Assembly (NCBI GenBank): GCA_030595715.1 | Contig: JAUVCN010000001.1 | Location: 1,418 to 65,417 of the forward strand | DNA: 64,000 nucleotides | From: Thermoplasmatales archaeon | GTDB taxonomy: Archaea > Thermoplasmatota > Penumbrarchaeia > Penumbrarchaeales > Penumbrarchaeaceae | Reading direction: 5' to 3' | Shown: piece after piece, positions 1,983 through 38,001 of the stretch | Position numbering within the stretch: position 1 is the first letter of the stretch | Layout: every line of letters starts with the position of its first letter | Made by a program: the position numbers and the translations under genes | The notes under the pieces: generated by a model | Databases searched by the model: none | What the model was told of the DNA's origin: nothing | Seen by the model: the letters and a program-made list of their open reading frames with translations, nothing else

Positions 1983-7106
<5,124 letters not shown>

Positions 7107-10532: not shown

Positions 10533-10598
10533 TGGAGCACCTCCTTGAAAATATGACCTCTAGGTTCATGGGCATTGAACTGCATTTGTGATATCCCC

Positions 10599-10853
10599 CT
10601 ATAGACCGGTCTTCTCCTCAACAACAAGTCTGTAATAATTGGAAGCTCCCGCGGTCGGGCTCTCCCTCTCGATCTTGATCACCTGCCCGGGTTGAGCTGC
10701 CAGGGCTTTGGCACATGGATCTGCCATCAGGATCAAAGGGAGCTTTCCCTTTACGATCCCGTACTCCTTTAACAACTCATCGACCTCTTCTTCCGACATT
10801 ATCGAATGTCTCGGAACGAGGTAGTTCTCCATAACGTTGAACTGTGGCATCAT
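10599..10853 (-). CDS. rpoH: DNA-directed RNA polymerase subunit H (Rpo5)
   Basis: 84 aa with the typical RpoH motif HSIMSEEEVDELLKEYGIVKGKLPLILMADPCAKAL. A GGAGG sits 6 nt upstream of the ATG. Confidence 0.85.
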   Translation of the reverse strand: MMPQFNVMENYLVPRHSIMSEEEVDELLKEYGIVKGKLPLILMADPCAKALAAQPGQVIKIERESPTAGASNYYRLVVEEKTGL

Positions 10854-10904
10854 GAGGTCCTCCTGGGCCGGCGGGTAGACAGCGTTGTACCATATCAGGA
10901 GGAA

Positions 10905-11020
10905 GTGGCGGGTCCGAGGGGATTCGAACCCCCGGCCATCTGGTTAAAAGCCAGACGCTCTTTCTAGGGAAGGCGGCCTCAGAATAGACCGAGCATCCTA
11001 CCTAGCTGAGCTACGGACCC
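10905..11020 (-). tRNA. tRNA-Lys (anticodon UUU) with an approximately 38-nt intron at a non-canonical D-arm position; CCA is encoded
   Basis: The minus-strand read is GGGTCCG TA GCTC AGCTAGGTA[G GATGCTCGGTCTATTCTGAGGCCGCCTTCCCTAGAA A]GAGC G TCTGG CTTTTAA CCAGA TGGCC GGGGG TTCGAAT CCCCT CGGACCC G CCA. It has a 7-bp acceptor stem, a GCUC/GAGC D-stem, an anticodon loop CU-UUU-AA and a TTCGAAT T-loop. Intron CCUAG can pair with D-loop CUAGG, giving a BHB-like helix. Confidence 0.75.
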
Positions 11021-11322
11021 AGAATTACCCTTTCCGCTACCCGATACGGTCAAGACGAGAACGTGCATAATACCTTTATTATTTAACTGTTTGCATCAAT
11101 GTCCCCTATCGGGTAGGATAATGGGATATCAGCCCCAGATCTGTATATGTAAATCCCCGATATGAGGTGCAAGAGGACAAAAGCATTAAATGGTTAGAAA
11201 CGGAATTATCCTTACCGCATCCGAAGGTCAAGACACATGGGAAGAGGATAGCGGGGTCGTTCTTGCTTAGATCTGATTTTTGAGGATCTTCATATATCAG
11301 ACCATCGTTGTTGATCCTTACA

Positions 11323-12459
11323 TCAAACATATCCAGAATAATCCACTCCTTCTTCAACAAGGTGAACACCGGAACCATTCTCAACCCGGCCGATAACCCT
11401 GGCCCCATATTTCGCAAGGACGGTCAAGACATCATCCCTGGACCGGTTATCGATGACGATCACCATCCCAAGACCCATATTGAAGGTCTGGTACATCTCC
11501 TTCTCCTCGATCCTTCCGAGGACCTGGATCAATCTGAACACAGGAGGAACCTCGAACATGTCATCGATCACGTACGACAGGTCCTCCTTCATTCTGCTGA
11601 TGTTCCTCATCCCGCCGCCGGTGATATTTGCCATACCCTTGACCGATCCCTTCTTCACCGTCCTCAGGAGTTCCAGTATTTCCTTCACATAGATCCTGGT
11701 TGGTGTCAGCAGGACATCTCCAAGAACCTTTGGTTCGGTGGAACCTACCCAGTCCTCCACCGCCTTCATATGCTCGGGGTAGAGGGTCCTGGAACTCCAC
11801 TCCGTTGATCCGATGACCTCCTGGAGTGGTGAGATGTAGGAAAGACCATTCTCCTCCACGACCATTCTTACAAGGGTGAACCCGTTGGAATGTATCCCGG
11901 ATGACGGAAGACCGATGATCAGATCTCCGGGGGAAACATCCTTTCCGGTGATGACGGCATCCTTGTTCACCATCCCAAGGCAGGTCCCCGCGAGATCGAG
12001 TCCTTTGACTATCTCAGGAAGGGTGGCGGTCTCCCCGCCTATGATCGTTAGATTGGACCGCTTTGCACCTTCGTTCAGGCCCTTCCCGATCTCCGAGAGG
12101 ATACCCCTGTCAGGATCCTCGGTCGCAATGTAATCCACAAATGCCAAAGGTTCTGCCCCGACGCATATCATGTCGTTGACATTCATCGCCATGCAGTCGA
12201 TACCCACGGTATCCCATTTTTGCAGGGTCTCCGCGATCTTTATCTTGGACCCCACACCATCGGTACAAAGGGAAAGATACCTGTCCCCTATATCGATCAA
12301 TCCGGTGAAGCTTCCACCAAGGTCCACTGGAGAACCCACGCCTTTCCTCTTGAAACCAAGGGAGGAGACCAATCCGCGAATGGCATCTCCTTCACTCCGG
12401 ATATCAACACCTGCCTGTGCATATGTCATCCTTTTTTTCCCTACAGGATCTTTGGACAT
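11323..12459 (-). CDS. purM: Phosphoribosylformylglycinamidine cyclo-ligase (AIR synthetase)
   Basis: 378 aa showing the PurM N- and C-domains (AGVDIRSEGDAI..., CMAMNVNDMICVGAEPLAFVDYIA). The start is probably Met11 (MTYAQAGVDI). Confidence 0.9.
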   Translation of the reverse strand: MSKDPVGKKRMTYAQAGVDIRSEGDAIRGLVSSLGFKRKGVGSPVDLGGSFTGLIDIGDRYLSLCTDGVGSKIKIAETLQKWDTVGIDCMAMNVNDMICVGAEPLAFVDYIATEDPDRGILSEIGKGLNEGAKRSNLTIIGGETATLPEIVKGLDLAGTCLGMVNKDAVITGKDVSPGDLIIGLPSSGIHSNGFTLVRMVVEENGLSYISPLQEVIGSTEWSSRTLYPEHMKAVEDWVGSTEPKVLGDVLLTPTRIYVKEILELLRTVKKGSVKGMANITGGGMRNISRMKEDLSYVIDDMFEVPPVFRLIQVLGRIEEKEMYQTFNMGLGMVIVIDNRSRDDVLTVLAKYGARVIGRVENGSGVHLVEEGVDYSGYV

Positions 12460-12468
12460 TTCAATTCC

Positions 12469-13359
12469 TCAATATGTTAAGACCTTGCAACCGTTCTCGG
12501 TTACGTATAACGTATGTTCCCACTGGGCCACCATGCCGCCCGATGTTTCCTTCAATATCGGGTAGGAATAGACCGAACCGGCCCTGACCAATCCTTTTAA
12601 AGGTCTTTCAGATCTTTCGATCTTTCTTGAAAGCCATCTCTCGGAGAATGGCAGTCTGTTCATCTCCGATCTCAGGATCTCCATGGCTGCTATCTGATCT
12701 TCTTTCAACTTGCCCCTTGGTCGAACGAAGCGGTAGATATTGGACCTCTTTCCCGATGTTACCTCGCCGACACCTGTTGTAGCAAAGGGTTCTATTGCCA
12801 CTATGGTTCCAACTGGCAGGTAATCCCTTGATCTGTCATCATAGTTCGGTACCGAGAGGCCTGCATGAAGATTGTACCTCTCTATGGAATGACCGGTGAG
12901 ATTGACTATGGGTTTGAATCCTGACGAATTGATGGTCCTTTCCACAATGGATCCAATAGTTGAAAGTGAGATCCCACCCCTGATCACCTCGATGGCGGAT
13001 TCGAGCGATAACTTGGCCGCCAGTATCAGGCCATGGTAGGTGTTTGATCCGACCTCTACTGTCTTTGCGGTGTCACCTATCCTGCCATCTATATGAGCTC
13101 CGACATCTATCTTGACGAGGTCACCATACTGGAACTTACCCTTGTCATTCGGTTTGGGAGTGTAATGTGCCGCGATATCATTGATCGCAATATTGGTCGG
13201 GAAGGCCACCCTGGCCCCATGATCCCTGATAAGGTCCTCAACGGTATTGGCAACTTCAAGATAGGTGACCCCTTCCTCGACCATCCTGGCCCCGAGATCC
13301 CTTGCCTTTCCGGCTATTCCGCCTGCCCGCTTCCATTTGGAGAGTTCATCCTCATCCAT
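12469..13359 (-). CDS. map: Methionine aminopeptidase, type 2 (archaeal)
   Basis: 296 aa with a pita-bread fold and metal ligands (DLVKIDVGAHIDGRIGDTA ... HSIERYNLHAG ... AIEPFAT ... EHTLYVTE). Confidence 0.9.
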   Translation of the reverse strand: MDEDELSKWKRAGGIAGKARDLGARMVEEGVTYLEVANTVEDLIRDHGARVAFPTNIAINDIAAHYTPKPNDKGKFQYGDLVKIDVGAHIDGRIGDTAKTVEVGSNTYHGLILAAKLSLESAIEVIRGGISLSTIGSIVERTINSSGFKPIVNLTGHSIERYNLHAGLSVPNYDDRSRDYLPVGTIVAIEPFATTGVGEVTSGKRSNIYRFVRPRGKLKEDQIAAMEILRSEMNRLPFSERWLSRKIERSERPLKGLVRAGSVYSYPILKETSGGMVAQWEHTLYVTENGCKVLTY

Positions 13360-13987
13360 TGTGGCCCCTCATACGATCAAAGATATTTACCTTTCCCTTT
13401 CTTAGTAATATTGGTGGATATTCTGTAATATCTATCATCTCCGACGGCTCCGATGATATCGATGAAATGTCCTCTATCATTAGGAGGTCCGATCTCCCCA
13501 TCTGTCCTTCAAGGTCCTCCTCCCCCATGACGGGACCCTTCCCATGAACATTGGCGCTGGTCAGTGCGACCGGACCGAACTTCTCACAGATCGAATGGAA
13601 TATTGGATGTTCCGGGATCCTTATCGCAACCTTACCCTCCTGAACAACTTGGCCCGGAAGACCCCGATCAGCAGGAACAATGAATGTGACCGGACCCGGA
13701 AGGTTCTCTTTCAATATTTCCATCATTCCCATATCCGGTCTGGCAACCATTTCGATCATTTCAAGAGAACCTACAGCCACGGGGAGCTTCATCTCTTCAG
13801 GTCTCTTCTTCATGGAGAATATCTCGTTCAGGAGCCCAATATCTTCGATAGGTGCAGTGATGCCGTATACCGTATCGGTGGGAACTATTACAGGAATGCC
13901 CCTATCGAACTCATCCCTGATCGAACCCAGGATATCTTCCAATGCCCCCTTCTCCCATTTGATGGATCTCACACTTCCTTTTAACAT
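13352..13987 (-). CDS. tsaC: L-threonylcarbamoyladenylate synthase, YrdC/TsaC short form
   Basis: 211 aa with the YrdC domain signature PVIVPTDTVYGI ... GPVALTSANVHG. There is no Sua5 C-terminal domain. Confidence 0.8.
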   Translation of the reverse strand: MLKGSVRSIKWEKGALEDILGSIRDEFDRGIPVIVPTDTVYGITAPIEDIGLLNEIFSMKKRPEEMKLPVAVGSLEMIEMVARPDMGMMEILKENLPGPVTFIVPADRGLPGQVVQEGKVAIRIPEHPIFHSICEKFGPVALTSANVHGKGPVMGEEDLEGQMGRSDLLMIEDISSISSEPSEMIDITEYPPILLRKGKVNIFDRMRGHNG

Positions 13988-14022
13988 CTGATCGTATAAA
14001 TATTTGGGTCCTTGATGGCTTA

Positions 14023-15054
14023 TTAATCATCCATTATGAGAAGATGGTCACCTTCCCTCAGTTTCAATCTGTCCATCTTCTCCAGGGAAAGGACCTTTTC
14101 CGACCTGACCACACCCAGGACAACGATCCCCTTCAGTGACCTTGGATCCTTGCCAAGTTCCACTCCCATGACCTCCCTCTGGCTCAGGTACATCCCCTTC
14201 TCGGAGGTCATTACATCCTCAAGAAGATGGACGACATTCGGTTGGGATGTCGCAGTTGCCATCAATGAGCCTGATGTCACAGCAGGAGCGATGATGGTCT
14301 CCACTCCTGATTTCTTGAGCAGCTTGATGTTCTCAAGGTCGGTTACCTGTGATATCACCCTGATGCCGGGGTTCAGATATTTGGCCGTCAGGGTGATCAG
14401 TATATTGTTGTCATCCTTTCGAGTGGATATAACGATCGAAGAGGCCTTTTCGACCATCGCATCCATCAGGACCGTCTCTTTGGACGCGTCACCGTTGATG
14501 GATATGAACCCATCATCGGCTGCAAGCTGAGCCTCATCAGGATCTGTCGTGATCACTACGATATTCCTCTTCTTGGACCCCCGGGATACCAGTTCGTCAG
14601 CAGTTGTCTGTCCCGAAGTGGTATAGCCCACGATCAGTATATGGTCCTTGAGCGTTCTCTGAATGGTCTTCATCATCACTGCCTCCCGATATCTATCATA
14701 GATGAACTGATAGGTGGTCCCGACTATAACGAACCACATTGCGGCTCTACCGAACGTGATCAGGACCGTATCGAATATCCTGGCCGATTCCGATACCGGA
14801 ACGATATCCCCGTAACCCGTGGTCGTGATGGACATAACGGTGAAATATACGGCATCCGGATATGAGATCCCATCCCCCTGGGAGTCCTCGTAATGGTCCC
14901 TGAATGTATAAACCAGAGAAGCTATTATGATTATCATCAACAGCAGGAAGGATATCCTTACCAATACAGTGACGAGGTTGGCCCTTCTTTTCTTGTAAAT
15001 GAAATTGGACCTTTTCTTCTCCGAACCCCGCAATGGATGCCCCCTATCCTGCAT
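14023..15054 (-). CDS. MthK-like 2TM potassium channel with a C-terminal RCK (TrkA-N) domain
   Basis: Selectivity filter TTTGYGD flanked by two TM helices, followed by a Rossmann-type RCK domain (ILIVGYTTSGQTTADELVSRG...). Confidence 0.85.
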   Translation of the reverse strand: MQDRGHPLRGSEKKRSNFIYKKRRANLVTVLVRISFLLLMIIIIASLVYTFRDHYEDSQGDGISYPDAVYFTVMSITTTGYGDIVPVSESARIFDTVLITFGRAAMWFVIVGTTYQFIYDRYREAVMMKTIQRTLKDHILIVGYTTSGQTTADELVSRGSKKRNIVVITTDPDEAQLAADDGFISINGDASKETVLMDAMVEKASSIVISTRKDDNNILITLTAKYLNPGIRVISQVTDLENIKLLKKSGVETIIAPAVTSGSLMATATSQPNVVHLLEDVMTSEKGMYLSQREVMGVELGKDPRSLKGIVVLGVVRSEKVLSLEKMDRLKLREGDHLLIMDD

Positions 15055-15093
15055 ACAGGATATACGTAATGATTAAAAAGAATATGGAAAGGT

Positions 15094-15480
15094 TCATACA
15101 AGGCTCAGCTTCCCATTCGGGAAATCCAGGGTCATCCTGAAATGCTTCAGGAAATTCAATCCGAGCAGACCTTCGACCCTTGTTTCGGTGGGCAGGTCAA
15201 AACTCGCAACCTCGATGTTTTTCACGGTCTTTCCCATTATTTCAATAGAATCGACCCTTACAATATCAACATCAACCGTTCCACCTGCCGTCTGAATATG
15301 CACAGACCTTGCAGTGATAATAGTTGATGAGCCGATCTTCTGAATTACCTTACCCGGGATCATGGTGATGGATGCTCCAGTATCAAGGATGAATTGGACC
15401 ATCCTCTCTCCATCCGGACCGGAAACCGACCCATCCAGAACTATAGCTGTACAATCACGACTAATGGAGGCCTCTGACAT
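15094..15480 (-). CDS. Retropepsin-like (clan AA) aspartic protease
   Basis: 128 aa with the catalytic FILDTGAS motif. The size and layout fit a single-domain retropepsin that dimerises. Confidence 0.7.
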   Translation of the reverse strand: MSEASISRDCTAIVLDGSVSGPDGERMVQFILDTGASITMIPGKVIQKIGSSTIITARSVHIQTAGGTVDVDIVRVDSIEIMGKTVKNIEVASFDLPTETRVEGLLGLNFLKHFRMTLDFPNGKLSLV

Positions 15481-15490
15481 ATGATCACCA

Positions 15491-15838
15491 TCACAGTGCG
15501 AACGCGTGGCCTCTCTGGGGTATCTCGCCTGAAAAGAAAGTGAAGGTCAAACCTTCATGTTCCATCATGATCCTATCAATATTTTCCTTGTCCTTGGAAT
15601 GACCCAATATTTCAGCATCCGTTACCTTGCCCTGATCATTCCTGGCAAGGACCTCAACTATTATCCACTCATCGGGATATTTCTGTTTGTAACTTTCGAT
15701 GGTATCCACCTCCATCATTTGCATCATTGAAGGTATCTGTCGGGGTGATGATAAATAGTTTCCGATAACAGGGTGAACTGAAACAAAAATTGAGGAATGA
15801 TATTGAAAAGGGACGACCCCCTCTTTGGGGCCTATCAT
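15491..15838 (-). CDS. Small hypothetical protein; the likely true start is internal (MMQMMEVDTIESYK..., about 78 aa)
   Basis: The ORF is 10 nt upstream of, and co-directional with, the retropepsin gene. It has no recognisable motif. Confidence 0.4.
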   Translation of the reverse strand: MIGPKEGVVPFQYHSSIFVSVHPVIGNYLSSPRQIPSMMQMMEVDTIESYKQKYPDEWIIVEVLARNDQGKVTDAEILGHSKDKENIDRIMMEHEGLTFTFFSGEIPQRGHAFAL

Positions 15839-15862
15839 ATTTTCGGATCAGGTTATCAATGA

Positions 15863-17851
15863 TCACATATCATCGGGTCCGTTATGCCACGGATCATAGC
15901 CTGGTGTGGTATTCTCATCGATGGCGGGTCTGAAGGCCGGGTCCCCGTAAACTGCGAAGAACGTCACCTCGTACCAGTCTACCCCTCCATCAGGGTTCAT
16001 AGGAGACGGTTGATTGTTCGGCCCATAGTTCATGTATCTGTTCTCCGACCACTGGACCGCCTTCCCGATCGTCCCGTGCTCCGGGTGGTTCAGGATCCCA
16101 TCCCAGACGAATGCATACCATGCATCGTTGTGGTCCCATCTGTGATCATCGACGAAAGGAAGGTATTCGGCTGGAAGTGAGGTCAGGTCCTGACCGATGT
16201 TCGAGAAGGAAACCTCTGTAGCTCCCACCAGGACCGCGGGACCGGCTGCGAGATAGTTAAGTGTCAACAATTTGTCGAATGCAACATCGCTTCCCGGATC
16301 AGTTCCGGGACCATGTCCGTATATCTTTCCATTCAGACAGGATACGAAGAATGCTATTTGAGGTGGAACGTTCATTGCAGCTGCATCGGAGTACCTGAGC
16401 TGATGTTCATCACCATTGGGCCCGTAGACCCTTATACCATATAGGGACCCTGTATCGGATCCATGGCCCCTGTAGGCCACGTATCCAGCTCCCTCGCAGA
16501 TCTCCGTGAGATCGTTTTCCATGGAATTCACAGTTCCATCAAGGAACTTGTTTCCAGTATTGAAGGGGCCAATATAATCATAGGTGAATCCGGCATCCTC
16601 GAAATCTGTGCAGATCCATCTTGCAGGAGTTGCCTGCATTCTCTTGTAAGTAATGTCAAAACCAGAGAATGAAGCGCCATGCTCTCTCCATGTCTTTTCA
16701 TGGGTCCCACCGGCAACGTCCCTGTAATCCACTGTTACCGTCTCAGAGAAATCATCGAAAAGATAGGTTTTCAACAGCTGATTTGATGCAAGTGACACTT
16801 CATACTGGATTATCCTGCCAACAGCTGAATCCATCCGGGAATTATCGCTGTCCATGAATCCATACATGACATCGGAATTAACGATCTCGGTCGATCCTTC
16901 CTCGGGTTTGACAAGGAACTGTGGAACTGCCGTTGCGGACCCTGTGATAGCCACATATTCAAGTGGCCCGAAGTCGTTGTGGACATTGACAAGCTTCTCG
17001 TGATATCCAAGAGCTCTCCTATTCTGAGAGAGCTCCAGGTCCAGGACCCAATCGGTGTTATCCTGTGGTGTTGCATTGGTTATGACATATGCATCGTAAT
17101 ACGCCGACATCTGGGCCGCCATCAATGAGATATCGGGACAGAACCACGCATCATCATATGAGTCATATTCAGGCGTGCTACCGATGGATTCAAGCGAATG
17201 ATCGTTTGGATTTGCAACGATCGCATAGTTCGATGACACACCAATGTCCTTCAGGTAGGACCAGGTCTGTTCCTGATCGATAAAGGTCCTTTCCCCCTGG
17301 ATCACAGCCAGTCCCATATTCTTGGCATATGCAGCTGCCCAGAGGGACTCCTCGTAATCCTCCACGGTGAGGATATCATTGAAACCTATGAAACTCCTGG
17401 ATATGTCTGTGGTGAGTGGATATACATCTGTATCATTGACAGGGCTCAATCCCTCGGTGGAAAGCTGCTGATTGATATTTGCAAGGCCTGTTTCCTTGTT
17501 GGTAAAAAGAACCTTGGGTCTGTCGGTGTTCAGATGAGTGAGGGTGTAGATCTGCTGGCTTGAAATGCCGCCCTCGGGATCGCATATCACAAGAGGACGA
17601 TATATATCCCCCATGAACTGGACCGATGTTAGAGTCGATATGGCGAACAACTCATTTTCGGTTGTGGGATAATCCACGATCATCATGAAATCCTCGGGCA
17701 GGGCATTCACAGGAGAATATATATCCGGGTCCTTGTCGTCATCTCCCAGTAGCAGGACCGCAACGACCCCAATAAGTAGAAGTATCACAAAGGCAGCGGC
17801 TCCGATCTTCAATCCGGTTTTCCTCGATCGACCATCCATCCTGTTCGCCAT
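15863..17851 (-). CDS. Membrane-anchored extracellular protein with a predicted His/Cys peptidase domain (C25/gingipain- or clostripain-like caspase fold)
   Basis: 662 aa with an N-terminal signal-anchor (KIGAAAFVILLLIGVVAVLLL). Candidate catalytic dyad motifs are YVAYRGHGSDTGSLYG and QIAFFVSCLNGKIYG. A paralog is encoded at 59529..61928. Confidence 0.55.
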   Translation of the reverse strand: MANRMDGRSRKTGLKIGAAAFVILLLIGVVAVLLLGDDDKDPDIYSPVNALPEDFMMIVDYPTTENELFAISTLTSVQFMGDIYRPLVICDPEGGISSQQIYTLTHLNTDRPKVLFTNKETGLANINQQLSTEGLSPVNDTDVYPLTTDISRSFIGFNDILTVEDYEESLWAAAYAKNMGLAVIQGERTFIDQEQTWSYLKDIGVSSNYAIVANPNDHSLESIGSTPEYDSYDDAWFCPDISLMAAQMSAYYDAYVITNATPQDNTDWVLDLELSQNRRALGYHEKLVNVHNDFGPLEYVAITGSATAVPQFLVKPEEGSTEIVNSDVMYGFMDSDNSRMDSAVGRIIQYEVSLASNQLLKTYLFDDFSETVTVDYRDVAGGTHEKTWREHGASFSGFDITYKRMQATPARWICTDFEDAGFTYDYIGPFNTGNKFLDGTVNSMENDLTEICEGAGYVAYRGHGSDTGSLYGIRVYGPNGDEHQLRYSDAAAMNVPPQIAFFVSCLNGKIYGHGPGTDPGSDVAFDKLLTLNYLAAGPAVLVGATEVSFSNIGQDLTSLPAEYLPFVDDHRWDHNDAWYAFVWDGILNHPEHGTIGKAVQWSENRYMNYGPNNQPSPMNPDGGVDWYEVTFFAVYGDPAFRPAIDENTTPGYDPWHNGPDDM

Positions 17852-17876
17852 TTTGATAACTCCTATCGATCATTCA

Positions 17877-18782
17877 TCAATCATTATTCATCTTCCCAGA
17901 CTCCACGAGAAGACTGAGCTCCTCAAGAGAGAGGCTCTCACCACTTTTGTATTTTGCAAGAACATCCACCAAACGTCGATCGTTATCGGACCTTCTACGC
18001 TCCTGGGGTGACTTGTCGAACTCCTTCTTCAATTCATCTATCTTGCGATAGTAGGAAGTGACCTCCTTTTTGATCTTCCATCCATGCTTCTTCAGGGCCT
18101 TGACCTCGTTCAATGCATTGATGAATGCTTTGTGCTGGGCCTGGGCTTCATCCCTTACATCATCTCTCTTTGCCCAGAACTCCTTGGCGCTTATCAAACC
18201 TTCATGGGATTCGGATTTGAGATCACCGATCTCGTGTTCCATCTCGCCCATTTCCTTGTTGTATTTCTTGAGGTCGATCTCTTTGACCCTCACTATCTCC
18301 CTGTGGATCACGTCTGCCATGGATTTTACGATCAGGCGATCACGGAGCTCGAACAGGAAATCATAGAGGTATAGCTCGTTCTTCAGGCTGATATCGTCAT
18401 TTAGAAGATTATCCTTTGTCTGCTCGAAGTTCATCTTCAGTCGATCGAAGGTTCCCCGGGATGCATGATTATGAGAATCCCTCACCTTCCTGAGCTCACC
18501 GATCCTCTGAAGATATGGCTGCATCTCCTTGTAGATCGTTCTCTTTTCCGTATTCATCTCTTCGATATTCTCCCAGACAGCTTTCCTCTTCTCCAGGATC
18601 TGTTTTGGTTTCTGAGACAGGTCCTTGACCTTATCATTGAGCTCATCCCTCTTATCCTTGAATGAATCCACTTCGGAGAGCTTGTTCTTGATCTTGACGT
18701 GAATGATCTCCTCTTCATCCCGGAGCTCGTTGATCTTCTCCCTGACCTCGCGGATCTTTCCAGCGATCTCGAAGTTCTGCAT
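17877..18782 (-). CDS. Archaeal coiled-coil protein (COG1340-like)
   Basis: 301 aa, almost entirely heptad-rich, charged alpha-helical sequence. The start overlaps the stop of the upstream gene. Confidence 0.7.
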   Translation of the reverse strand: MQNFEIAGKIREVREKINELRDEEEIIHVKIKNKLSEVDSFKDKRDELNDKVKDLSQKPKQILEKRKAVWENIEEMNTEKRTIYKEMQPYLQRIGELRKVRDSHNHASRGTFDRLKMNFEQTKDNLLNDDISLKNELYLYDFLFELRDRLIVKSMADVIHREIVRVKEIDLKKYNKEMGEMEHEIGDLKSESHEGLISAKEFWAKRDDVRDEAQAQHKAFINALNEVKALKKHGWKIKKEVTSYYRKIDELKKEFDKSPQERRRSDNDRRLVDVLAKYKSGESLSLEELSLLVESGKMNND

Positions 18783-20602
18783 CAGGCCACCTCCTTCTTC
18801 TCTTCCACGATCTCCCCTTTCTTTCCATCCTCTATCTTCACCGGGGGATCCTCCTTCCTGCTCTCTTTTAGACCTTCTTCGGTCTTACTTTCTTTCTTCT
18901 GTTCTTGCTGGGGGGCCTTGTTATCCTTCTTCTTATCTTCCGGGATCTCCAGTTTCTTTCCATCCTCGATCTTCACCGAGGGATCCTCCTTATTGATCTC
19001 TCCATTACCCTCTCCGGTCTTGCTCTCTTCCTTCTTTTCGGAGGGGATCTTGTTATCCTTCCTCTTATCTTCCGGGATCTCCAGTTTCTTTCTGGGACCT
19101 GACCTTCTATCAGGCTTCGATCCCTCCTTCCTGCCGTCCCTGTTTTCGAAGACCTTCAAAAGTTTATCCCTGATCTGCTCATTCGATCTCTTGTCCTCTT
19201 CATCATCCATCTGGGCAGCCTTGTCTCTCTGCCCTTCCCAGAAAATTGCCATCTCTTCATGGAGCTGGGTCCTTCTCTCGAGCCATCCCTTTCTGCTCTC
19301 CTTTTCACGGATCTTTCTCTGGGCACCGATGAACTTTTCATGATGAAGATTTGACTCTTCCACCTTCTCGAGCAATTTCGAGTGGAGGTCCTCGATACTT
19401 ATCAGATTCTGTGATATCTTCTCCTCGATCTCGGTCAGACTCTGTTTTATCTCCTCGGGTGTGAGACCGTCGGTTATTGACCTGATCTTCTGCATCGTCT
19501 CTTTGACCTCATCAAGAAGTCTCCTTTCAGTGGCGATGTCAATGGCCTCGGTCTCCAACTTCCATTCCAGGTCCTGGATGTAAGATTGATGCATGCGAAT
19601 ATCTTGTTCATGGTCCTTGACCTTTTCTTCCTTCCTTATCAGATCGAAGAACTGCTGGCGAAGTTCCTTGTTCTCTCCCTTCAGCCTGGTCCTGCCATCT
19701 TTGAGATCAGCGACCTTCTTGTTTATCTGGTCGCGTTTTACTTTTTCTTCATCAGATTCCTCATCGGCCTTTTCGGGAGGTTTCTCAAGGTCCTTTTTCT
19801 CCTTGATATATTTCTTGATCAGGTCCTTGTGTTTCTTTACGATCCTATCGACCATCACCGCCCTCTTTTGGATCTCGATATCCTTCAGCATTTCCGAACC
19901 GTCTTCGGGGATTGGTGGGAATTCTATCTTCTTCGGAGGTTCCGATCGATCCGGTTCCTTCCGGTTTCCCTTCTCTTCATCCTTGGATATTTTCTTTGAT
20001 CCCTCTTGAGGTGCACCTGTCGATCCCTTTTCATCCTTCTTCTCTTCGGGTCCATCATCCTTTTTCTTGGAGGGGGCCTTCACCTTTTCTGCAGAAGGTT
20101 CTTCCATCTTCTCTTCAACAGGATCTTCTTCCTTCTTGGAAGGGGCCTTCACCTTTTCTGCAGAAGGTTCTTCTACCTTCTCCCCGGCAGGATCTTCTTC
20201 CTTCCTGGAGGGAACCTTCACCTTTTCTGCAGAAGGTTCTTCTACCTTCTCCCCGGCAGGATCTTCTTCCTTCTTGGAGGGAACCTTCACCTTTTCTGCA
20301 GAAGGTTCTTCTACCTTCTCTTCAACAGGATCTTTTTCCTTCTTGGAGGGAACCTTCACCTTTTCTGCAGAAGGTTCTTCAACCTTCTCCCCGGCAGGAT
20401 CTTCTTCCTTCTTGGGATCAGGTTCGGATATCTCATCGATATTCTCTTCTCCATTTTTCTCCTTTTCAGGAGTTTCGTTCTCTTTGATATCGGCCTCCGG
20501 GGCTGGAGCTGGCTTGACCTCGACGGAAGGGACATTGTCCTTTTCATCCTCTTTGGTCTCAACCTTGCTCGCCTCGGTCGTTACATCCTCTTTCTCTTTC
20601 AT
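18782..20602 (-). CDS. K/E-rich tandem-repeat protein with a central COG1340-like coiled-coil core
   Basis: 606 aa. The N-terminal region has 5 copies of a 23-aa repeat (KKEEDPAGEKVEEPSAEKVKVPS). The centre is a coiled coil. The C-terminal region has 2 copies of a roughly 44-aa repeat (KKLEIPEDKxKDNK...VKIEDG). Confidence 0.7.
   Translation of the reverse strand: MKEKEDVTTEASKVETKEDEKDNVPSVEVKPAPAPEADIKENETPEKEKNGEENIDEISEPDPKKEEDPAGEKVEEPSAEKVKVPSKKEKDPVEEKVEEPSAEKVKVPSKKEEDPAGEKVEEPSAEKVKVPSRKEEDPAGEKVEEPSAEKVKAPSKKEEDPVEEKMEEPSAEKVKAPSKKKDDGPEEKKDEKGSTGAPQEGSKKISKDEEKGNRKEPDRSEPPKKIEFPPIPEDGSEMLKDIEIQKRAVMVDRIVKKHKDLIKKYIKEKKDLEKPPEKADEESDEEKVKRDQINKKVADLKDGRTRLKGENKELRQQFFDLIRKEEKVKDHEQDIRMHQSYIQDLEWKLETEAIDIATERRLLDEVKETMQKIRSITDGLTPEEIKQSLTEIEEKISQNLISIEDLHSKLLEKVEESNLHHEKFIGAQRKIREKESRKGWLERRTQLHEEMAIFWEGQRDKAAQMDDEEDKRSNEQIRDKLLKVFENRDGRKEGSKPDRRSGPRKKLEIPEDKRKDNKIPSEKKEESKTGEGNGEINKEDPSVKIEDGKKLEIPEDKKKDNKAPQQEQKKESKTEEGLKESRKEDPPVKIEDGKKGEIVEEKKEVA
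18823..19090 (-). repeat. In-frame roughly 130-bp tandem repeat, 2 copies, in the C-terminal region of the K/E-rich protein
   Basis: The string ttatccttcttcttatcttccgggatctccagtttctttc occurs twice. The protein units are KKLEIPEDK(R/K)KDNK...PxVKIEDG. Confidence 0.7.
20070..20420 (-). repeat. In-frame 69-bp tandem repeat, 5 copies, coding for KKEEDPAGEKVEEPSAEKVKVPS units
   Basis: Direct repetition is visible in the DNA (cttggaaggggccttcaccttttctgcagaaggttcttc...) with a period of 69 nt. Confidence 0.8.
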
Positions 20603-20628
20603 ATCTCATTCCTACCTTGGATGCTGTA

Positions 20629-22221
20629 TCATTCGTATCCGACAATATCATCGGAATTCTCATTCCAGTAATTGTAAGGGGATGTCTGTTTGGACTGTGA
20701 TTCCGACATCTCTCCCATCACAGCTCCCTGAAATGCCCCAAACCTACCCCTTATCTGCTCTTCTGCAGTTTTTGATCTTCTAATGGCTTGGTCCACATCA
20801 TCTGATGTTATCAATTCATGCCCCTTGGTGACAGCAATATCGCCTGCGGCTCTGATCACTCCACCCATATCTCTCAATCTAAGGGTCAAAGCTTTCTTCT
20901 TCTTGTCCGTAACTAGCGCCCTTCTTCTGGCATCTTTCAGGAGTGCCAATATTGCAGTCATGTCTGCATGCGGTATCCTTCCATCCATCACTACCTCCTG
21001 GGCAATGAACTGGATGAATTTCTTCCTGTTCACATCATTATCCGGCATTGTGGTGGATACCAGTACCTCATAACCGGATCCCATGATCCTGGACCTGAGA
21101 GGAGAGATTATATGGTGCAGGTCCTGGATGTTGCATGCTCCCACGAAGACAAAATCACAGGGAACACTGTCCACCTTGACACTTGCACCGGCACTCTGAG
21201 GGTTCCTTCCAGATATCGAGAAGAGCTTCTCCTGCATGGCAGTGAGTATGAAACGCTGCATCTGACCGAGGTGTGGAAGTTCATCTATGAACAGGACCCC
21301 TTCATGGGCCTCATGGATCGCGCCCGGGACAACTCTTTCGTATGGCGGCGTTCCAAGTCCCTTGTGTCCGCCGTAGGGGTCATGTCTGACATCCCCTAGA
21401 AGTTCTGTTTCGGAGGCTCCCGTAGCCATCACGAAGTTCTGCCTTTTCAACGGTATCAGGATCTTCTTGGGAGAGGCTTTCTCCTTTTCCCTCTTTGCTT
21501 CAAGGGATCTTTGGTCAAGTACCCTGATCTTCGGCCCGGCCGATTCATAGACAACGACCTCCTCCTTGCCCTTGACAAGTCTTGTGGTCTGTATCCTGGG
21601 TTTCTGCCCACCCAGCTGATTGAGGGTCACTTTCAAAATATCCTCCAATCCCTGGAGCATGTTGTTCATTCCTATGTCGACCATGGCGACCTTTGGCTTC
21701 TTGTCGGGAGATTTGGCTGCCTGGCAGTTTGGACACACCAATTGTTCATTTGATGAATAGGTTCCGCACCTGGCACATCTGTATCCAAGTTTCTCTGCAA
21801 TGTCCACCGGTGCATCCACCGGGGATATTAATCTCTCCTTGACAATGAGGTTCCTGTTTTCGTCTTTCCTTACCTCTTCTTCCTTCTTGACCTGTATGAA
21901 CGGCCTTTCAGGATATTCCGGATTGGAAACCACATATATCTGAGACGTTGGAATCGGCAGATGCTTTGCCATGGCCTGGGCTATCATGGATTTTCCTGTC
22001 CCAGGAGGGCCAACAAGAAGTAGATGTCTTCTCTGCTTCGCTGCTACAAGGGATAGTGCAACTACAGCCTCCTGGCCGATGACCCGGTTCATCGGATCGG
22101 TGGGAATGATCACCTGAGATGTATCCTTGATACCATAGAGTTCTTTCCTGGATGCTTTCTTCGAACCCTTGGACGTTCCATTTAGGGTCTCCTTCTTGGA
22201 ACCCTTCTTTACAGGTGCCAT
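20629..22221 (-). CDS. LonB-like AAA+ ATPase lacking the protease domain, with a zinc ribbon in place of the LonB transmembrane insert
   Basis: 530 aa. Walker A RHLLLVGPPGTGKSM; LonB-specific blocks LGDVRHDPYGGHKGLGTPPYERVVPGAIHEAHEGVLFIDEL (Walker B) and VPCDFVFVGACN...SPLRSRI. CARCGTYSSNEQLVCPNCQ is inserted between Walker A and B. The protein ends after the AAA lid, with no Ser-Lys protease domain. Confidence 0.75.
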   Translation of the reverse strand: MAPVKKGSKKETLNGTSKGSKKASRKELYGIKDTSQVIIPTDPMNRVIGQEAVVALSLVAAKQRRHLLLVGPPGTGKSMIAQAMAKHLPIPTSQIYVVSNPEYPERPFIQVKKEEEVRKDENRNLIVKERLISPVDAPVDIAEKLGYRCARCGTYSSNEQLVCPNCQAAKSPDKKPKVAMVDIGMNNMLQGLEDILKVTLNQLGGQKPRIQTTRLVKGKEEVVVYESAGPKIRVLDQRSLEAKREKEKASPKKILIPLKRQNFVMATGASETELLGDVRHDPYGGHKGLGTPPYERVVPGAIHEAHEGVLFIDELPHLGQMQRFILTAMQEKLFSISGRNPQSAGASVKVDSVPCDFVFVGACNIQDLHHIISPLRSRIMGSGYEVLVSTTMPDNDVNRKKFIQFIAQEVVMDGRIPHADMTAILALLKDARRRALVTDKKKKALTLRLRDMGGVIRAAGDIAVTKGHELITSDDVDQAIRRSKTAEEQIRGRFGAFQGAVMGEMSESQSKQTSPYNYWNENSDDIVGYE

Positions 22222-22269
22222 TCTACCACCGATCCTCAGTAGGTTTTCTAATAGACGTTCGATCTTGCT

Positions 22270-23634
22270 TCATCCTGTCAGATCGTCCTTGGAAAGGACG
22301 GTCACTCCCTTTGGTTCCTTCGTAAGATTGCCTTTCTTGGAACCAACAAGGAACTTTATCTCCTGTTCTGCTGCAATATCCAATAGCCTCTGGGAGATTA
22401 TCCCATCGAAGACCACCGAATGTATACCCGTTGGAGGAGATTTGAGAGTGTCTGCCAGCTGCCTGACGGCAAGCTCCAGAACAACCTCACCCTTTGGATT
22501 GATCAACATTGCCCTAAGGGTCCCGGATAACTTCTTCAAGATATCACGATACCTTGCGATCTCTATATCCATCCTCTCTTCATTCTTGGGTTCGGCCTGT
22601 TTCACTGGAGCCTCTTCCTTGGGTGACGATGGCTTTTCGATCTCCTTCTTTACCGTCCTCTGTGGTTTCCTCTTCTCTATGCGTTCTTTGTGAACGTCCT
22701 TCTTCACCACTTCACTCGAGAACTTGTTCTTGTTGTTCTTTCCATTGTCGATCTTGTGCTTGAATTCGGATGTCAGGTCATTCATCTCAAGATACTGCTC
22801 AAATGGTATCTTGTTCCTCAATGCCTTGATGATCTGCTTCTGGGTCAATTCCTCAACCTCAAGAGCTTTTGGTGCCCTGGCAACGAAGTCGACCTCGGCT
22901 ACCTGGAAAAGCTCCTTCAGGATCAACTCTCCACCTCTATCTCCATCCACAAAGGCAGTGACCACCCTCTCTGATGATATCTTCTGCACCGAGGGAGGAA
23001 CATTCGTTCCACCAACAGCAATGGTGTTCTTTATCCCGAATTTCAATAGATTGATAACATCGGACCTTCCCTCAACGACGATGATCGCATCGGAGGTCTC
23101 CACGTTCGGACCTGCTGTACACTTATCGTCACCGAACAGGATGACCTCATCGATCTGGACTGCCTGTCTTACTGAATCTGTCAGGTCAAGACCGGATATC
23201 TTCGACTGGCCAACCATGCTCGTCAAAAGCTCCTTGGCTCGATCGATGATCTTCTGCTTCTTCGTGACCCTGACATCCTCGATCTTTTCGATCGTGATCT
23301 TTGCCCTGCAGGGTCCGATCCTGTCAATGGTCTCCAATGCTGCTGCCAGGATCGCGGTTTCCACCTGATCAAGGGAAGAGGGTATGAGGACCTTGCCTTC
23401 AGATTTTCCTTTCTTGGATGCGATCTCGACCTCTATCCTCCCCATCCTTCCTGTCTTCTGGAGGTCTCTAAGATCGAGTTCTTCACCGAGGAGTCCCTCG
23501 GTCTGGCCGAAGATGGCACCCACAACATCGGGTTTTTCCACTACACCATCTGCCACCAGTTTTGCTTCTATCAGATATTTTGTTGTTGCTGGATCAAGAT
23601 TCATTAATCTCACCTTTCCTATTTTGTGTTTCAA
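22270..23634 (-). CDS. dnaG: Archaeal DnaG primase (Toprim domain; exosome-associated)
   Basis: 454 aa with a conserved N-terminal domain, Toprim motifs IIVVEGRSDVINLLKFGIKNTIAVGGT and FVDGDRGGELI, and a K/E-rich C-terminal linker. Confidence 0.9.
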   Translation of the reverse strand: MKHKIGKVRLMNLDPATTKYLIEAKLVADGVVEKPDVVGAIFGQTEGLLGEELDLRDLQKTGRMGRIEVEIASKKGKSEGKVLIPSSLDQVETAILAAALETIDRIGPCRAKITIEKIEDVRVTKKQKIIDRAKELLTSMVGQSKISGLDLTDSVRQAVQIDEVILFGDDKCTAGPNVETSDAIIVVEGRSDVINLLKFGIKNTIAVGGTNVPPSVQKISSERVVTAFVDGDRGGELILKELFQVAEVDFVARAPKALEVEELTQKQIIKALRNKIPFEQYLEMNDLTSEFKHKIDNGKNNKNKFSSEVVKKDVHKERIEKRKPQRTVKKEIEKPSSPKEEAPVKQAEPKNEERMDIEIARYRDILKKLSGTLRAMLINPKGEVVLELAVRQLADTLKSPPTGIHSVVFDGIISQRLLDIAAEQEIKFLVGSKKGNLTKEPKGVTVLSKDDLTG

Positions 23635-23950
23635 CGTTACACGTGATCTGAAAAGGAAACCATTGACCTGTGAGGACCCTTTTGGTCCCTCCGCGCCAAA
23701 TCTACATTATTTGAGTTTAACCGCCTGAAGCGATATCGACTATCATCTGGTAATCGTGATGTGGATGGGATAGCGGACCCCGCAGGAACCGGTCCCTTTT
23801 CACATCTGGATGATGGATTGCATATATATTGGTTTCCCTTGATGTCATTGAATCTTATTGATCTCCCCCCCTTGTAGCCCGTGATAACAAGGGTCAATGT
23901 AGTTTGAATTCACCCATTCTACAGCCAGTTACGAACTTCCTGTGAAAAGG

Positions 23951-23960
23951 TTATTATAAT
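23951..23960 (+). promoter_or_regulatory. Candidate TATA box (TTATTATAAT, purine-rich BRE-like AAAAGG upstream) about 34 nt before the ATG at 23989
   Basis: The spacing fits a near-leaderless archaeal transcript. Confidence 0.35.
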
Positions 23961-23988
23961 CATTGTTTTAATACGGCATTCGTTCCCC

Positions 23989-24501: not shown

Positions 24502-25626
24502 ATGACCATGAATGACCAATGGGCCCATGTTGAGGTCCTGAGGCTTGGTCACAGACCTGAGAGAGATAAACGTATCACAACACATGTTGCACTTGTAGCG
24601 AGAGCCTTCGGAGCTTCTTCGATCCATATTGATACCAAGGATCCTTCCCTGGAGAGGAACATTGAGAGCGTCACCGATCGCTTTGGTGGTGATTTCAGGA
24701 TAGAGACAGGTGTCCCAAGAAAGAGAGTGATGGGAAGATGGGCCGGGACCATAGTTCATCTGACGATGTATGGAGCCCCACTTGACGATACGATCAGGGA
24801 GATCCCGGAAGGAGAGGATGTCCTCGTGATCGTTGGGGCGGAGAAGGTGCCTGCCGATGTCTATGACCTTGCCCATTTCAATATCGCCGTGGCAAATCAA
24901 CCCCATTCCGAGGTATCCGCACTTGCCCTGTTCCTTGATCGATTGTTCAAGGGAAAGGAGATAAAGCGTACCCTTGGCGGTGGAGAGGTAAAGATACATC
25001 CCACGAATGTGGGAAAGATCGTTGCTGACCATAACGATATTACTTTCGAACAGATCATCGATCCTTTTGAAATGGACATCGATCCCGTTCCTTCAAAGGA
25101 GGATTGCCTTGGACTTCTCCTGGCCCTTGGGATCTCGAGACCGGTCCTGACCCATCTGAAAGAAGTCCATAGACTCGGAATGGAAATGGTCAAGGCCTCC
25201 CGCAAGATCGGAACCCTGCCGGATCTGGACCTGGGCCTGCTCGAGGCCGGCCTTCTGTTGCATGATATCGGAAGGGCAAGGACCCATTCGATCAGGCATG
25301 TAACGCTGGGAGCGGAACTTGCCAGTAAATTGGGACTGGATGAAAGGATCGTCTCGATCATTCATAACCATATAGGGGCGGGCATCACAAAGGGTGAAGC
25401 ATCGGATATCGGCCTTCCAGCGGAGGATCATATCCCGTTGACACTGGAGGAGATGATAGTTTGCCACGCGGATAATCTGGTGGGCGATCACAAGCGCAGA
25501 CCACTATCTGCAGCATTGGAAAGATTGCGGATCAAGGGCGCGAATGCTGCGATAGCCAGAATGGAAGCGCTTCATGAAGAGCTCGAGACATTACTTGGAA
25601 TTGATATCGATGAATTGATAGGGTGA
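24502..25626 (+). CDS. tRNA (cytidine56-2'-O)-methyltransferase aTrm56 (SPOUT) fused to a C-terminal HD-domain phosphohydrolase
   Basis: The N-terminal roughly 180 aa carry the aTrm56 signature VLRLGHRPERDKRITTHVALVARAFGA. The C-terminal roughly 185 aa carry an HD motif LLLHDIGRARTHSIRH...IHNHIGAGI...CHADNLV. Confidence 0.8.
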   Translation: MTMNDQWAHVEVLRLGHRPERDKRITTHVALVARAFGASSIHIDTKDPSLERNIESVTDRFGGDFRIETGVPRKRVMGRWAGTIVHLTMYGAPLDDTIREIPEGEDVLVIVGAEKVPADVYDLAHFNIAVANQPHSEVSALALFLDRLFKGKEIKRTLGGGEVKIHPTNVGKIVADHNDITFEQIIDPFEMDIDPVPSKEDCLGLLLALGISRPVLTHLKEVHRLGMEMVKASRKIGTLPDLDLGLLEAGLLLHDIGRARTHSIRHVTLGAELASKLGLDERIVSIIHNHIGAGITKGEASDIGLPAEDHIPLTLEEMIVCHADNLVGDHKRRPLSAALERLRIKGANAAIARMEALHEELETLLGIDIDELIG

Positions 25627-32707: not shown

Positions 32708-32933
32708 TATATTGCCTCCACGGACAAAATGGCCGGCTCAATATATCGCCATGAAATAACCGTTCCTTTATTAAATCTTTTGGAGAACCTGGCCAGAGGC
32801 CAGGATCACCTGATAAACCGTTCCTTACCCTCAGGTTTGTCAATGGTAATTTGACACTTGTAACTATATAAGCTTGATCATCACATGAACAGGATATCCA
32901 GCTTTGAACAATGAAGCTCCAAAGGGGCCCGAC

Positions 32934-36491: not shown

Positions 36492-36619
36492 AGGGACACC
36501 CTCTACTGGATAATATTCCAGTTACATACGATATCGATTATAAGAGTTGTGATAGAATATTACCATTGGCATATTAGATGTGATCCTGAATACCCGGCTC
36601 TTCAAGGACCATGCCAGAC

Positions 36620-37936: not shown

Positions 37937-38001
37937 ATCACGGCCTCCATACGCTCAGGCGCCTTGAAGGAATGCCCCCTATATTAGGTTTAAGAGCGGG
38001 A

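Follow-up and report, generated by a model that had tools for sequence, protein, structure and literature searches.

A predicted soluble, protease-less LonB paralogue encoded beside dnaG in Thermoplasmatota

An ATPase gene in a 64,000-nucleotide (nt) stretch of contig JAUVCN010000001.1 from a Thermoplasmatales archaeon (hereafter, the window; all window coordinates refer to the full stretch) almost certainly encodes a soluble paralogue of the archaeal membrane-anchored protease LonB, in which the AAA+ motor is complete, the protease domain has been lost and a zinc ribbon takes the place of the membrane anchor, as judged from sequence and structure prediction. What appears to be new here is this LonB-family AAA+ architecture together with a strongly conserved genomic partner, dnaG. 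DnaG, a Toprim protein, binds RNA as a subunit of the archaeal exosome and acts as a primase in vitro. Neither the ATPase family nor its link to dnaG was found described in a literature search that covered few subscription journals, in line with an earlier reading of the locus from its letters alone (the initial annotation), which had called the system undescribed. A 2008 survey of archaeal replication-gene contexts, which predates these genomes, reports other DnaG neighbours and not this ATPase (PMC2643942). The finding suggests an additional class of motor associated with the proteasome or with DnaG.

The open reading frames (ORFs) of the locus bear out the four co-directional genes first described there: dnaG, the ATPase gene and two coiled-coil genes, CC1 and CC2, lie on the minus strand at 17877-23634, separated by gaps of 48 nt and 26 nt and a 1-nt overlap. 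Their extents, in order of transcription and with lengths in amino acids (aa), are as follows.

22270-23634, minus strand: dnaG, longest ORF, 454 aa, with a TTG start at 23634.
22270-23604, minus strand: dnaG, likelier extent, with a match to NF003108 and Toprim Pfam matches; N-terminal domain, Toprim domain, low-complexity lysine/glutamate-rich (K/E) linker and C-terminal domain.
22222-22269, minus strand: dnaG-ATPase spacer, 48 nt, with no T-run and a GGTGG ribosome-binding-like site ahead of the ATG.
20629-22221, minus strand: ATPase, 530 aa, predicted protease-less soluble AAA+ paralogue of LonB, from profile and structure-library matches, AlphaFold and Foldseek.
18782-20602, minus strand: CC1, 606 aa, K/E-rich, a lineage-specific neighbour outside the conserved core.
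17877-18782, minus strand: CC2, 301 aa, coiled coil of the DUF7121/COG1340 type, a lineage-specific neighbour.

The window DnaG scores 528.2 bits against NCBIfam NF003108 (cut-off 300), covering profile positions 1-418 of 419, and has Toprim Pfam matches. Translation of dnaG probably starts at the ATG at 23604 rather than the TTG at 23634, because a GGTGA-like ribosome-binding site precedes the ATG and residue 11 is where alignments with homologues start. The intergenic region between dnaG and a divergent ArsR-family (PF09824) gene, 23605-23988, spans ~350-380 nt, unusually long for so compact a region, and presumably holds both promoters; Rfam and tRNA scans of the whole window, including the ~350 nt upstream of dnaG, gave no match.

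Descent of the ATPase from LonB, as first proposed, is upheld by profile, library and model comparisons, and every motif quoted in the initial annotation is present. Against the NCBIfam LonB model TIGR00764 the protein scores 343.8 bits, under the cut-off of 516.6, with its best stretch at profile positions 170-400 of 608. Among solved structures, strong matches are confined to Thermococcus onnurineus LonB (3k1j, E-value 1.6e-83) and the isolated ATPase domain of LonB, and the core is 45-50% identical to genuine LonB proteases. PAN models match only at the P-loop (residues 65-87), and the lid gives a weak Pfam match to LonB_AAA-LID (E 0.0016). An AlphaFold run on a 12-sequence alignment was unusable, with a predicted local distance difference test (pLDDT) score of 57 and the core unresolved; we therefore used an 88-sequence alignment that included canonical LonBs, which gave a model with pLDDT 85.3 and a predicted template-modelling score (pTM) of 0.76. 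Foldseek with this model ranks 3k1j first (E 5e-36), followed by 4zpx (target template-modelling score, TM-score, 0.87) and then the Lon-like protein MtaLonC.

Loss of the protease domain is equally clear in these comparisons. The alignment to 3k1j stops at chain residue 383, where the LonB protease domain starts, and the ATPase chain finishes 40 residues past the lid. A Pfam scan of the ATPase found no match to Lon_C, the same scan giving E 1e-25 to 1e-37 for canonical relatives. We also considered a LonB truncated by frameshift or misassembly, or a pseudogene, and regard this as practically discounted: CC1 starts 26 nt past the ATPase stop with no Lon_C remnant detected, the best 120 homologues are all 491-549 aa long, the conserved tail is specific to the family, and a canonical LonB lies elsewhere on the same chromosomes in relatives.

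The motif and domain positions of the ATPase, all as predicted from alignment and model, are listed below.

21988-22011, minus strand: Walker A, GPPGTGKS, residues 71-78, invariant in the family.
21436-21939, minus strand: insert between Walker A and Walker B, residues 95-262, occupying the position of the LonB membrane anchor.
21724-21777, minus strand: C4 zinc ribbon CARCGTYSSNEQLVCPNC, residues 149-166, with C149, C152, C163 and C166.
21352-21402, minus strand: LonB-type pore-loop-1 block LLGDVRHDPYGGHKGLG (also given as LLGDVRHDPYGG), with aromatic Y283, aligning to the T. onnurineus LonB block.
21280-21300, minus strand: Walker B, GVLFIDE, residues 308-314; sensor-1 N364 and the arginines of SPLRSRI and LTLRLRD follow downstream.
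20632-20748, minus strand: C-terminal tail after the lid, residues 492-530, with an SPYxYWN motif, ending G-Y-E (20632-20640), at lower model confidence.

The insert runs from a helix through the C4 zinc ribbon and a charged, disordered linker (~residues 170-206) to a beta unit of three strands. The four ribbon cysteines are invariant among 12 aligned homologues, the CxxC...CxxC spacing is kept in distant relatives as well, and Pfam Zn_ribbon_3 matches the ribbon at a sub-threshold E of 0.0033. The highest Kyte-Doolittle value of the ATPase over 19-residue windows is 1.19, compared with 1.8-2.9 for canonical LonBs at the same insertion point; because no window is hydrophobic enough, a membrane helix is not predicted, and the earlier proposal that a zinc ribbon and charged linker replace the membrane insert of a soluble protein holds. 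Y283 is invariant in the family, and its block, to which we assign the pore-loop role established for Lon proteins, is among the most conserved columns once canonical LonBs are added. With Walker A and B, the pore-loop aromatic, the sensors and the arginine finger all in place, the LonB-type motor is apparently active.

A protein search with the ATPase returned thousands of homologues with lengths of 490-545 aa and the same architecture; the best 120 are without Lon_C, come mostly from Thermoplasmata and are annotated at source only as 'ATP-binding protein' or 'Lon protease family protein'. Scanning a single genome for each species gave 483 loci. The neighbourhood statistics given below rest on the best 80 of these 483, a set that includes Methanomassiliicoccales, Methanomethylophilaceae, Aciduliprofundum/DHVE2, Proteinoplasmatales and many other Thermoplasmata, with Thermoplasmatales proper and Poseidoniales outside it. 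The cultured Aciduliprofundum boonei T469, which has a complete genome, encodes a family member (ADD09201.1). A HMMER search of cluster representatives further recovered distant protease-less relatives at 34-44% identity, with the ribbon cysteines kept, in Thorarchaeota, Anstonellales and further metagenomic lineages.

Two of these distant relatives have a degenerate Walker B. They are zinc-ribbon, protease-less proteins of ~442 aa (P0137 and P0149, locus L088) that read YISDL or YLPDL at Walker B and 'GDIAIIQ' instead of 'GDVRHDPY' at the pore loop; neither has a dnaG neighbour, one is close to a phage-type integrase gene, and by sequence both are possibly inactive derivatives. Two LonB-like proteins of 437-469 aa (P0145 and P0153) keep a hydrophobic, transmembrane-like insert and apparently miss the protease domain; they could be a second, independent protease-less form or gene fragments.

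The family coexists with canonical LonB. No LonB paralogue was found in the 64-kb window, and the canonical enzyme, which the initial annotation had suggested checking for elsewhere in the genome, is present in relatives: closed chromosome CP070739.1 carries a 676-aa LonB with Lon_C at 0.42 Mb and the dnaG-ATPase pair at 3.15 Mb, and closed chromosome CP070751.1 likewise carries both. In a neighbour-joining tree of 390 shared columns, built without bootstrap, the zinc-ribbon protease-less proteins form one clade apart from LonBs, those of Thermoplasmata included, a separation that is indicative only.

The most consistent feature of the family beyond its architecture is its neighbour. Counting dnaG from tblastn coordinates of window proteins against the fetched loci, we found it immediately upstream and on the same strand in 75 of the 78 Thermoplasmatota loci with sufficient sequence upstream (all except L028, L031 and L042), a near-universal association that does not fit the passenger role given to dnaG in the initial annotation. 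At most 166 nt separate the dnaG stop from the conserved core of the ATPase, and the gap between the two genes is estimated at ~5 nt (median), 4-nt overlaps being frequent. The genes flanking the pair vary by lineage and include ArsR/Trm56, ribosomal protein, hemerythrin, acetyltransferase, cytidine deaminase and PLD-like genes. When all neighbouring ORFs of the ~80 loci were clustered, no family besides dnaG occurred in more than 31 loci; a simple gene caller fails in loci rich in guanine and cytosine (GC), where long antisense ORFs win, and counts for neighbours other than dnaG are lower bounds.

The association extends beyond Thermoplasmatota. Thorarchaeota have the order DnaG (42.6% identical to the window DnaG, E 2.5e-104), OsmC, ATPase and Pelota, the last directly after the ATPase (L086, 6516-7565). 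In one other metagenomic lineage, a short DnaG made of the N-terminal domain and Toprim (36% identical, E 6.5e-56) has a gene that shares 8 nt with the ATPase gene, and in a second a 285-aa Toprim protein, taken as an equivalent short DnaG, lies one 90-aa gene from the ATPase. The gene for the Holliday-junction resolvase Hjc directly follows the ATPase in both of these lineages, overlapping it in L094 (3080-3448); the other case is the locus of P0136. Adjacency to Pelota and Hjc hints at an RNA-surveillance or DNA-repair context. The Anstonellales version is not adjacent to dnaG, and no DnaG-ATPase fusion was found, the relatives of 800-1150 aa that we checked including canonical LonBs, some of them intein-bearing. 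Because gene order is stable while the surroundings change from lineage to lineage, the ATPase is probably a functional partner of DnaG, and the dnaG-ATPase pair a functional unit.

A second family-wide feature is the tail of ~40 residues past the lid, which carries the conserved SPYxYWN motif and a strictly aromatic penultimate residue, with endings of the forms G-Y-[E/Q/G], M-F-[H/N/R/S], A-Y-x and M-Y-x. These endings fit the operational definition of the proteasome-docking HbYX motif, in which the penultimate residue of the chain is Phe or Tyr, the one before it is small or hydrophobic and the last is free; the motif has been used to predict proteasomal ATPases (PMC3493965). The pattern is present in 118 of 120 family cluster representatives and 78 of 80 species loci; by comparison, it occurs in 19 of 630 neighbouring ORFs (3%), in 0 of 119 canonical Thermoplasmata LonBs and in 0 of 38 CC2 homologues. 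The Thorarchaeota ATPase ends Y-F-F and also fits.

The coiled-coil genes have a narrower distribution. CC1 consists of a disordered, variable, K/E/P-rich N-terminal region with five 23-aa repeats in the window, a conserved helical core of ~290 aa (residues 216-510; 19073-19957) and a variable C-terminal region with 2.3 repeats of 45 aa in the window. At the DNA level these correspond to 5.1 copies of 69 nt at 20064-20415 and 2.3 copies of 135 nt at 18790-19092, so that the K/E-rich repeats reported initially as about 600 nt are real, total ~655 nt and sit at both ends of the gene. The description of both proteins as COG1340-like is supported for CC2 and only weakly so for the window CC1. CC2 matches DUF7121 (PF23435) at E 2.3e-5 and 24.4 bits, below the cut-off of 29; a precomputed table gives PF23435 for CC2 and 38/38 homologues, which form a compact family of ~300 aa that the Joint Genome Institute (JGI) names 'uncharacterized coiled-coil DUF342 family protein', in COG1340 style. 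The window CC1 core has no Pfam match; DUF7121 is matched by 1/5 orthologous cores (E 3.1e-10), and precomputed matches exist for the CC1 orthologues of L090 and L091. In the literature COG1340 itself is described as no more than a strongly conserved set of archaeal coiled-coil proteins without an assigned function, for which a Thermoplasma acidophilum protein stands as representative (PMC1322226). Paralogy of CC1 and CC2 is unproven, with a BLAST E of 1.2 and a profile comparison giving 10.7% probability over 26 columns.

The order dnaG-ATPase-CC1-CC2 recurs where the ATPase is at least 65% identical (L004, L005, L006 in part, L090 and L091), and in L091 the ATPase/CC1 and CC1/CC2 junctions both overlap. 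In these relatives, however, the whole block is syntenic, comprising ArsR, Trm56, dnaG, ATPase, CC1, CC2, Sua5, M24, AIRS and RNA polymerase genes, so the linkage of the coiled-coil genes is indistinguishable from plain inheritance. Across the 80 species-level loci, the ATPase is mostly followed by something other than a coiled-coil gene; the commonest follower is a convergent gene of ~144 aa (31 loci), with acetyltransferase domains in the sole locus that has Pfam annotation. CC1 and CC2 are absent from the ATPase neighbourhood in all distant lineages examined. The DHVE2 locus L054 has two K/E-rich coiled-coil genes convergent to the ATPase (7814-11318, minus strand), one of 853 aa with 46% K+E and one of 321 aa with an N-terminal CxxC...CxxC ribbon; tblastn of the window CC1 and CC2 against L054 gave no match.

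Seven further genes, spaced at -8 to 39 nt, prolong the same-strand run beyond CC2 as far as 11323. These are a C25-like peptidase, a 115-aa ORF, an aspartyl protease, a K+ channel, Sua5, an M24 peptidase and an AIR-synthase-like protein. Because tight spacing holds along the whole run, it tells little by itself about a functional module, and operon limits cannot be read from the spacing in 11323-23634, where gaps are -8 to 48 nt. Much of this minus-strand gene order is kept in L090 and L091. The first of the seven genes (15863-17851, minus strand) starts 25 nt past CC2 and encodes a 662-aa gingipain-like Peptidase_C25 protein (E 4.5e-19) with an N-terminal transmembrane helix, which is probably extracellular; it follows the cluster in L004, L005 and L090, is not there in L091, and may share a transcript with the four-gene cluster. 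The initial annotation had described a module with no peptidase, which overlooks both this gene and the docking-type tail of the ATPase.

Our overall reading, which we hold tentatively, is of a DnaG-coupled unfoldase that would dock on the 20S proteasome in Thermoplasmatota. The ATPase would form a hexameric ring that threads polypeptides, a hexameric translocase being expected because its core and pore loop correspond to those found in functioning protease motors. A zinc-ribbon crown on the entry face, which is the membrane side in LonB, would recognise DnaG or proteins of DnaG-bound nucleoprotein complexes; in ClpX, a zinc-binding domain recognises substrates and adaptors. The C-terminal tails would leave on the exit face, the side of LonB's own protease, because in LonB (3k1j) the polypeptide passes from the lid into the protease ring stacked below the motor. 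There, in Thermoplasmatota, the [G/M/A]-[Y/F]-x tail ends would dock the ring on the 20S alpha ring and so replace the lost built-in protease. In HslU, which belongs to the same AAA+ clade as Lon, C-terminal tails activate the proteasome-like HslV. Taken by itself, docking of the tail on the 20S proteasome is possible, if doubtful. An extension of the scheme would have the ring bridge the DnaG-capped exosome and the 20S proteasome, the ribbon engaging DnaG or RNA-bound proteins, the motor unfolding them and the tails feeding the proteasome; we regard this as speculative and improbable. That archaeal genomes link exosome genes with proteasome genes was noted as early as 2001 (Koonin 2001, as cited in PMC3095777), and a DnaG-coupled motor bearing a docking-type tail would be consistent with that linkage. 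A survey that reports PAN to be missing from Thermoplasmata credits them with Cdc48 as their sole proteasomal ATPase; Lon-type proteins were outside its consideration (PMC3493965).

Several observations count against proteasome docking. The HbYX pattern is permissive, as its 3% background indicates, and it is missing from the forms of the two short-DnaG lineages, the Anstonellales form and the forms with a degenerate Walker B; because DnaG-linked forms of two distant lineages go without the motif, the tail is not required for the DnaG link to have meaning. The Hb position is Gly in ~87% of family members. Recent structural work indicates that 'YX' binds and that the Hb side chain, by filling a hydrophobic pocket, opens the gate (PMC12352868); with Gly at Hb, most members might bind without opening the gate, or the tail might bind something else. 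No recurrent proteasome or exosome-core gene was found near the pair in the ~80 loci, where such counts are lower bounds. In Aciduliprofundum a PAN-like gene lies in the same locus as the pair, so the family is not a simple PAN replacement. Finally, the Pelota, Hjc, archease and beta-CASP nuclease genes that neighbour the ATPase in distant lineages suit nucleic-acid transactions as much as proteolysis.

These neighbours lead to the main rival, a DnaG-directed machine that acts on nucleic acids or nucleoproteins without proteolysis. It could feed or clear exosome substrates, serve as a loader or translocase for the DnaG primase by analogy with DnaB-DnaG, or act in recombination with Hjc, its C-terminal aromatic motif binding DnaG, the exosome or a neighbouring subunit. 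Besides the gene neighbours, the reach of the dnaG link into lineages beyond those that keep the HbYX-like tail speaks for it, as do the common role of zinc ribbons as nucleic-acid binders, the placement of RuvB in the same AAA+ clade, and weak local matches to RuvB, MCM and ComM. Haloarchaeal LonB, moreover, binds DNA in vitro (PMC4343526). The RuvB and MCM matches, however, span the P-loop region only, whereas the core shares its 45-50% identity with LonB proteases over a stretch that includes the polypeptide-engaging pore-loop block, and a nucleic-acid role leaves the proteasome-docking pattern at the C-terminus of 98% of members unexplained. We consider this rival unlikely on balance, and the weightiest of those we examined. 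A Toprim-plus-ATPase anti-phage system of the OLD, Gabija or PARIS type was rejected: in PADLOC, DnaG has no match and the ATPase has local P-loop/Walker-B matches of 30-45 residues. The locus also sits in a housekeeping region, which weighs against a defence system.

Two further alternatives were weighed. The initial annotation combined ATPase, CC1 and CC2 into a chaperone or remodeller with a scaffold, for example for filament or cytoskeleton assembly, with dnaG merely co-transcribed. The three genes are indeed contiguous, with both junctions overlapping in L091, the arrangement is kept down to 65% ATPase identity, and CC2 homologues occur on the same contigs as ATPase homologues. Yet the coiled-coil genes are missing from the neighbourhood in most of the 80 loci as well as in every distant lineage, the entire surrounding block is syntenic where they are present, and tight spacing is general along the gene run to 11323; in addition, T. 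acidophilum, whose protein represents COG1340/DUF7121 (PMC1322226), is not among the recovered ATPase loci. Because the coiled-coil genes occur only in the clade of the window, within a syntenic block, an unfoldase plus scaffold is at best a clade-specific addition, and as an account of the family we find it hard to credit; the data offer no support for the accompanying speculation about cell walls and the cytoskeleton. What does survive of that proposal is its factual base, namely that no protease domain is present and that the cluster is conserved in relatives. A stand-alone soluble chaperone or disaggregase, for which the dnaG adjacency would reflect shared housekeeping expression and the C-terminal motif would be structural, is slightly harder still to credit. 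The ATPase motifs are intact and Lon-family chaperones are known, MtaLonC having been described as a dual chaperone-protease (PMC13069640), but stable order with stop/start overlaps in no fewer than two phyla (Thermoplasmatota and Thorarchaeota) and in other lineages, with every other neighbour changing, is difficult to attribute to co-expression alone.

Comparison with known machines clarifies what would set the ATPase family apart. Archaeal LonB (T. onnurineus TON_0529, PDB 3k1j and 4zpx; T. acidophilum Ta1081; MEROPS S16.005) has a homologous AAA+ module with the same motif set, a LonB-type lid and an insertion at the equivalent point between the two Walker motifs, the TM-score of 0.87 being against its isolated ATPase domain. 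The ATPase differs in having no S16 Ser-Lys protease domain and no predicted transmembrane helices, in an insert made of zinc ribbon, linker and small beta unit, in a 40-residue tail with an HbYX-like end, and in forming a separate clade that coexists with canonical LonB and is coupled to dnaG in genomes. MtaLonC of Meiothermus taiwanensis, the next structural match after LonB, is likewise a Lon-family member minus one activity, with the opposite loss: MtaLonC retains the protease without ATPase activity, and the family described here retains the ATPase without the protease.

With PAN, Cdc48/VAT and AMA (PMC3493965), the ATPase shares the C-terminal pattern, the status of an unfoldase without its own protease (a hexamer, by our reading) and occurrence in a class reported without PAN. 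It belongs, however, to the Lon (HCLR) clade and not to the classical AAA proteins, has neither an OB/coiled-coil nor a double-psi-barrel N-domain, and mostly carries Gly rather than a bulky hydrophobic residue at Hb, its 20S docking being predicted from the C-terminal pattern. HslU of HslUV is also of Lon's AAA+ clade, is encoded as a separate polypeptide and has a domain inserted in its AAA+ module, but is bacterial, ends in another tail sequence, and has no zinc ribbon and no DnaG link. ClpX similarly has no in-cis protease and possesses a C4 zinc-binding domain; that domain is N-terminal, ClpP is docked by IGF loops and not by a C-terminal tail, and the subfamily is different. Bacterial DnaG-DnaB pairs a Toprim DnaG with a ring ATPase, which is an analogy only, without homology: DnaB is a RecA-fold helicase rather than a Lon-type AAA+ protein, and for archaeal DnaG the best-documented role is that of a subunit of the exosome.

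The wider window is a housekeeping region that encodes FtsZ, the RNA polymerase subunits B, A' and A'', SecY, ribosomal proteins and tRNA synthetases. The A'' ORF (2284-4449, minus strand, 721 aa) matches Rpb1 domain 5 only from residue 339, which implies an N-terminal extension or insertion of ~340 residues without a Pfam match. A gene at 24502-25626 (plus strand) fuses aTrm56, a tRNA 2'-O-methyltransferase, to an HD-domain phosphohydrolase, a fusion also present in L090 and L091. The minus-strand region 29096-41136 encodes three very large proteins, of 1203 aa with a TSP3 repeat, 1185 aa with PKD/Big domains and 1044 aa with four Glucodextranase_B repeats, which by their sequences are likely secreted or surface-located; the run is interrupted by a gene for a class II tRNA synthetase of the aspartyl/asparaginyl type. 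Two plus-strand ORFs, 59529-61928 (799 aa) and 62033-63388 (451 aa), lack Pfam matches at E<=1e-5. Local GC content drops to 0.43-0.44 at 28-30 kb and 62-64 kb, against ~0.49 elsewhere.

The near-obligate pairing of the ATPase with dnaG provides a new handle on archaeal DnaG, whose role as exosome subunit, primase or both is unsettled. A widespread soluble Lon-type motor with a docking-type tail would revise the view of Thermoplasmata as having a single proteasomal ATPase, Cdc48 (PMC3493965). If the bridge between exosome and proteasome were true, RNA and protein decay would be coupled in a single machine, the archaeal exosome-proteasome gene linkage noted in 2001 and still unexplained would gain a mechanism, and lineages reported to be without PAN would possess a Lon-derived class of proteasomal ATPase. 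The presence of the pair in cultured A. boonei T469 and in metagenome-assembled genomes assigned to Methanomassiliicoccales, including Methanomethylophilaceae, makes these hypotheses directly testable.

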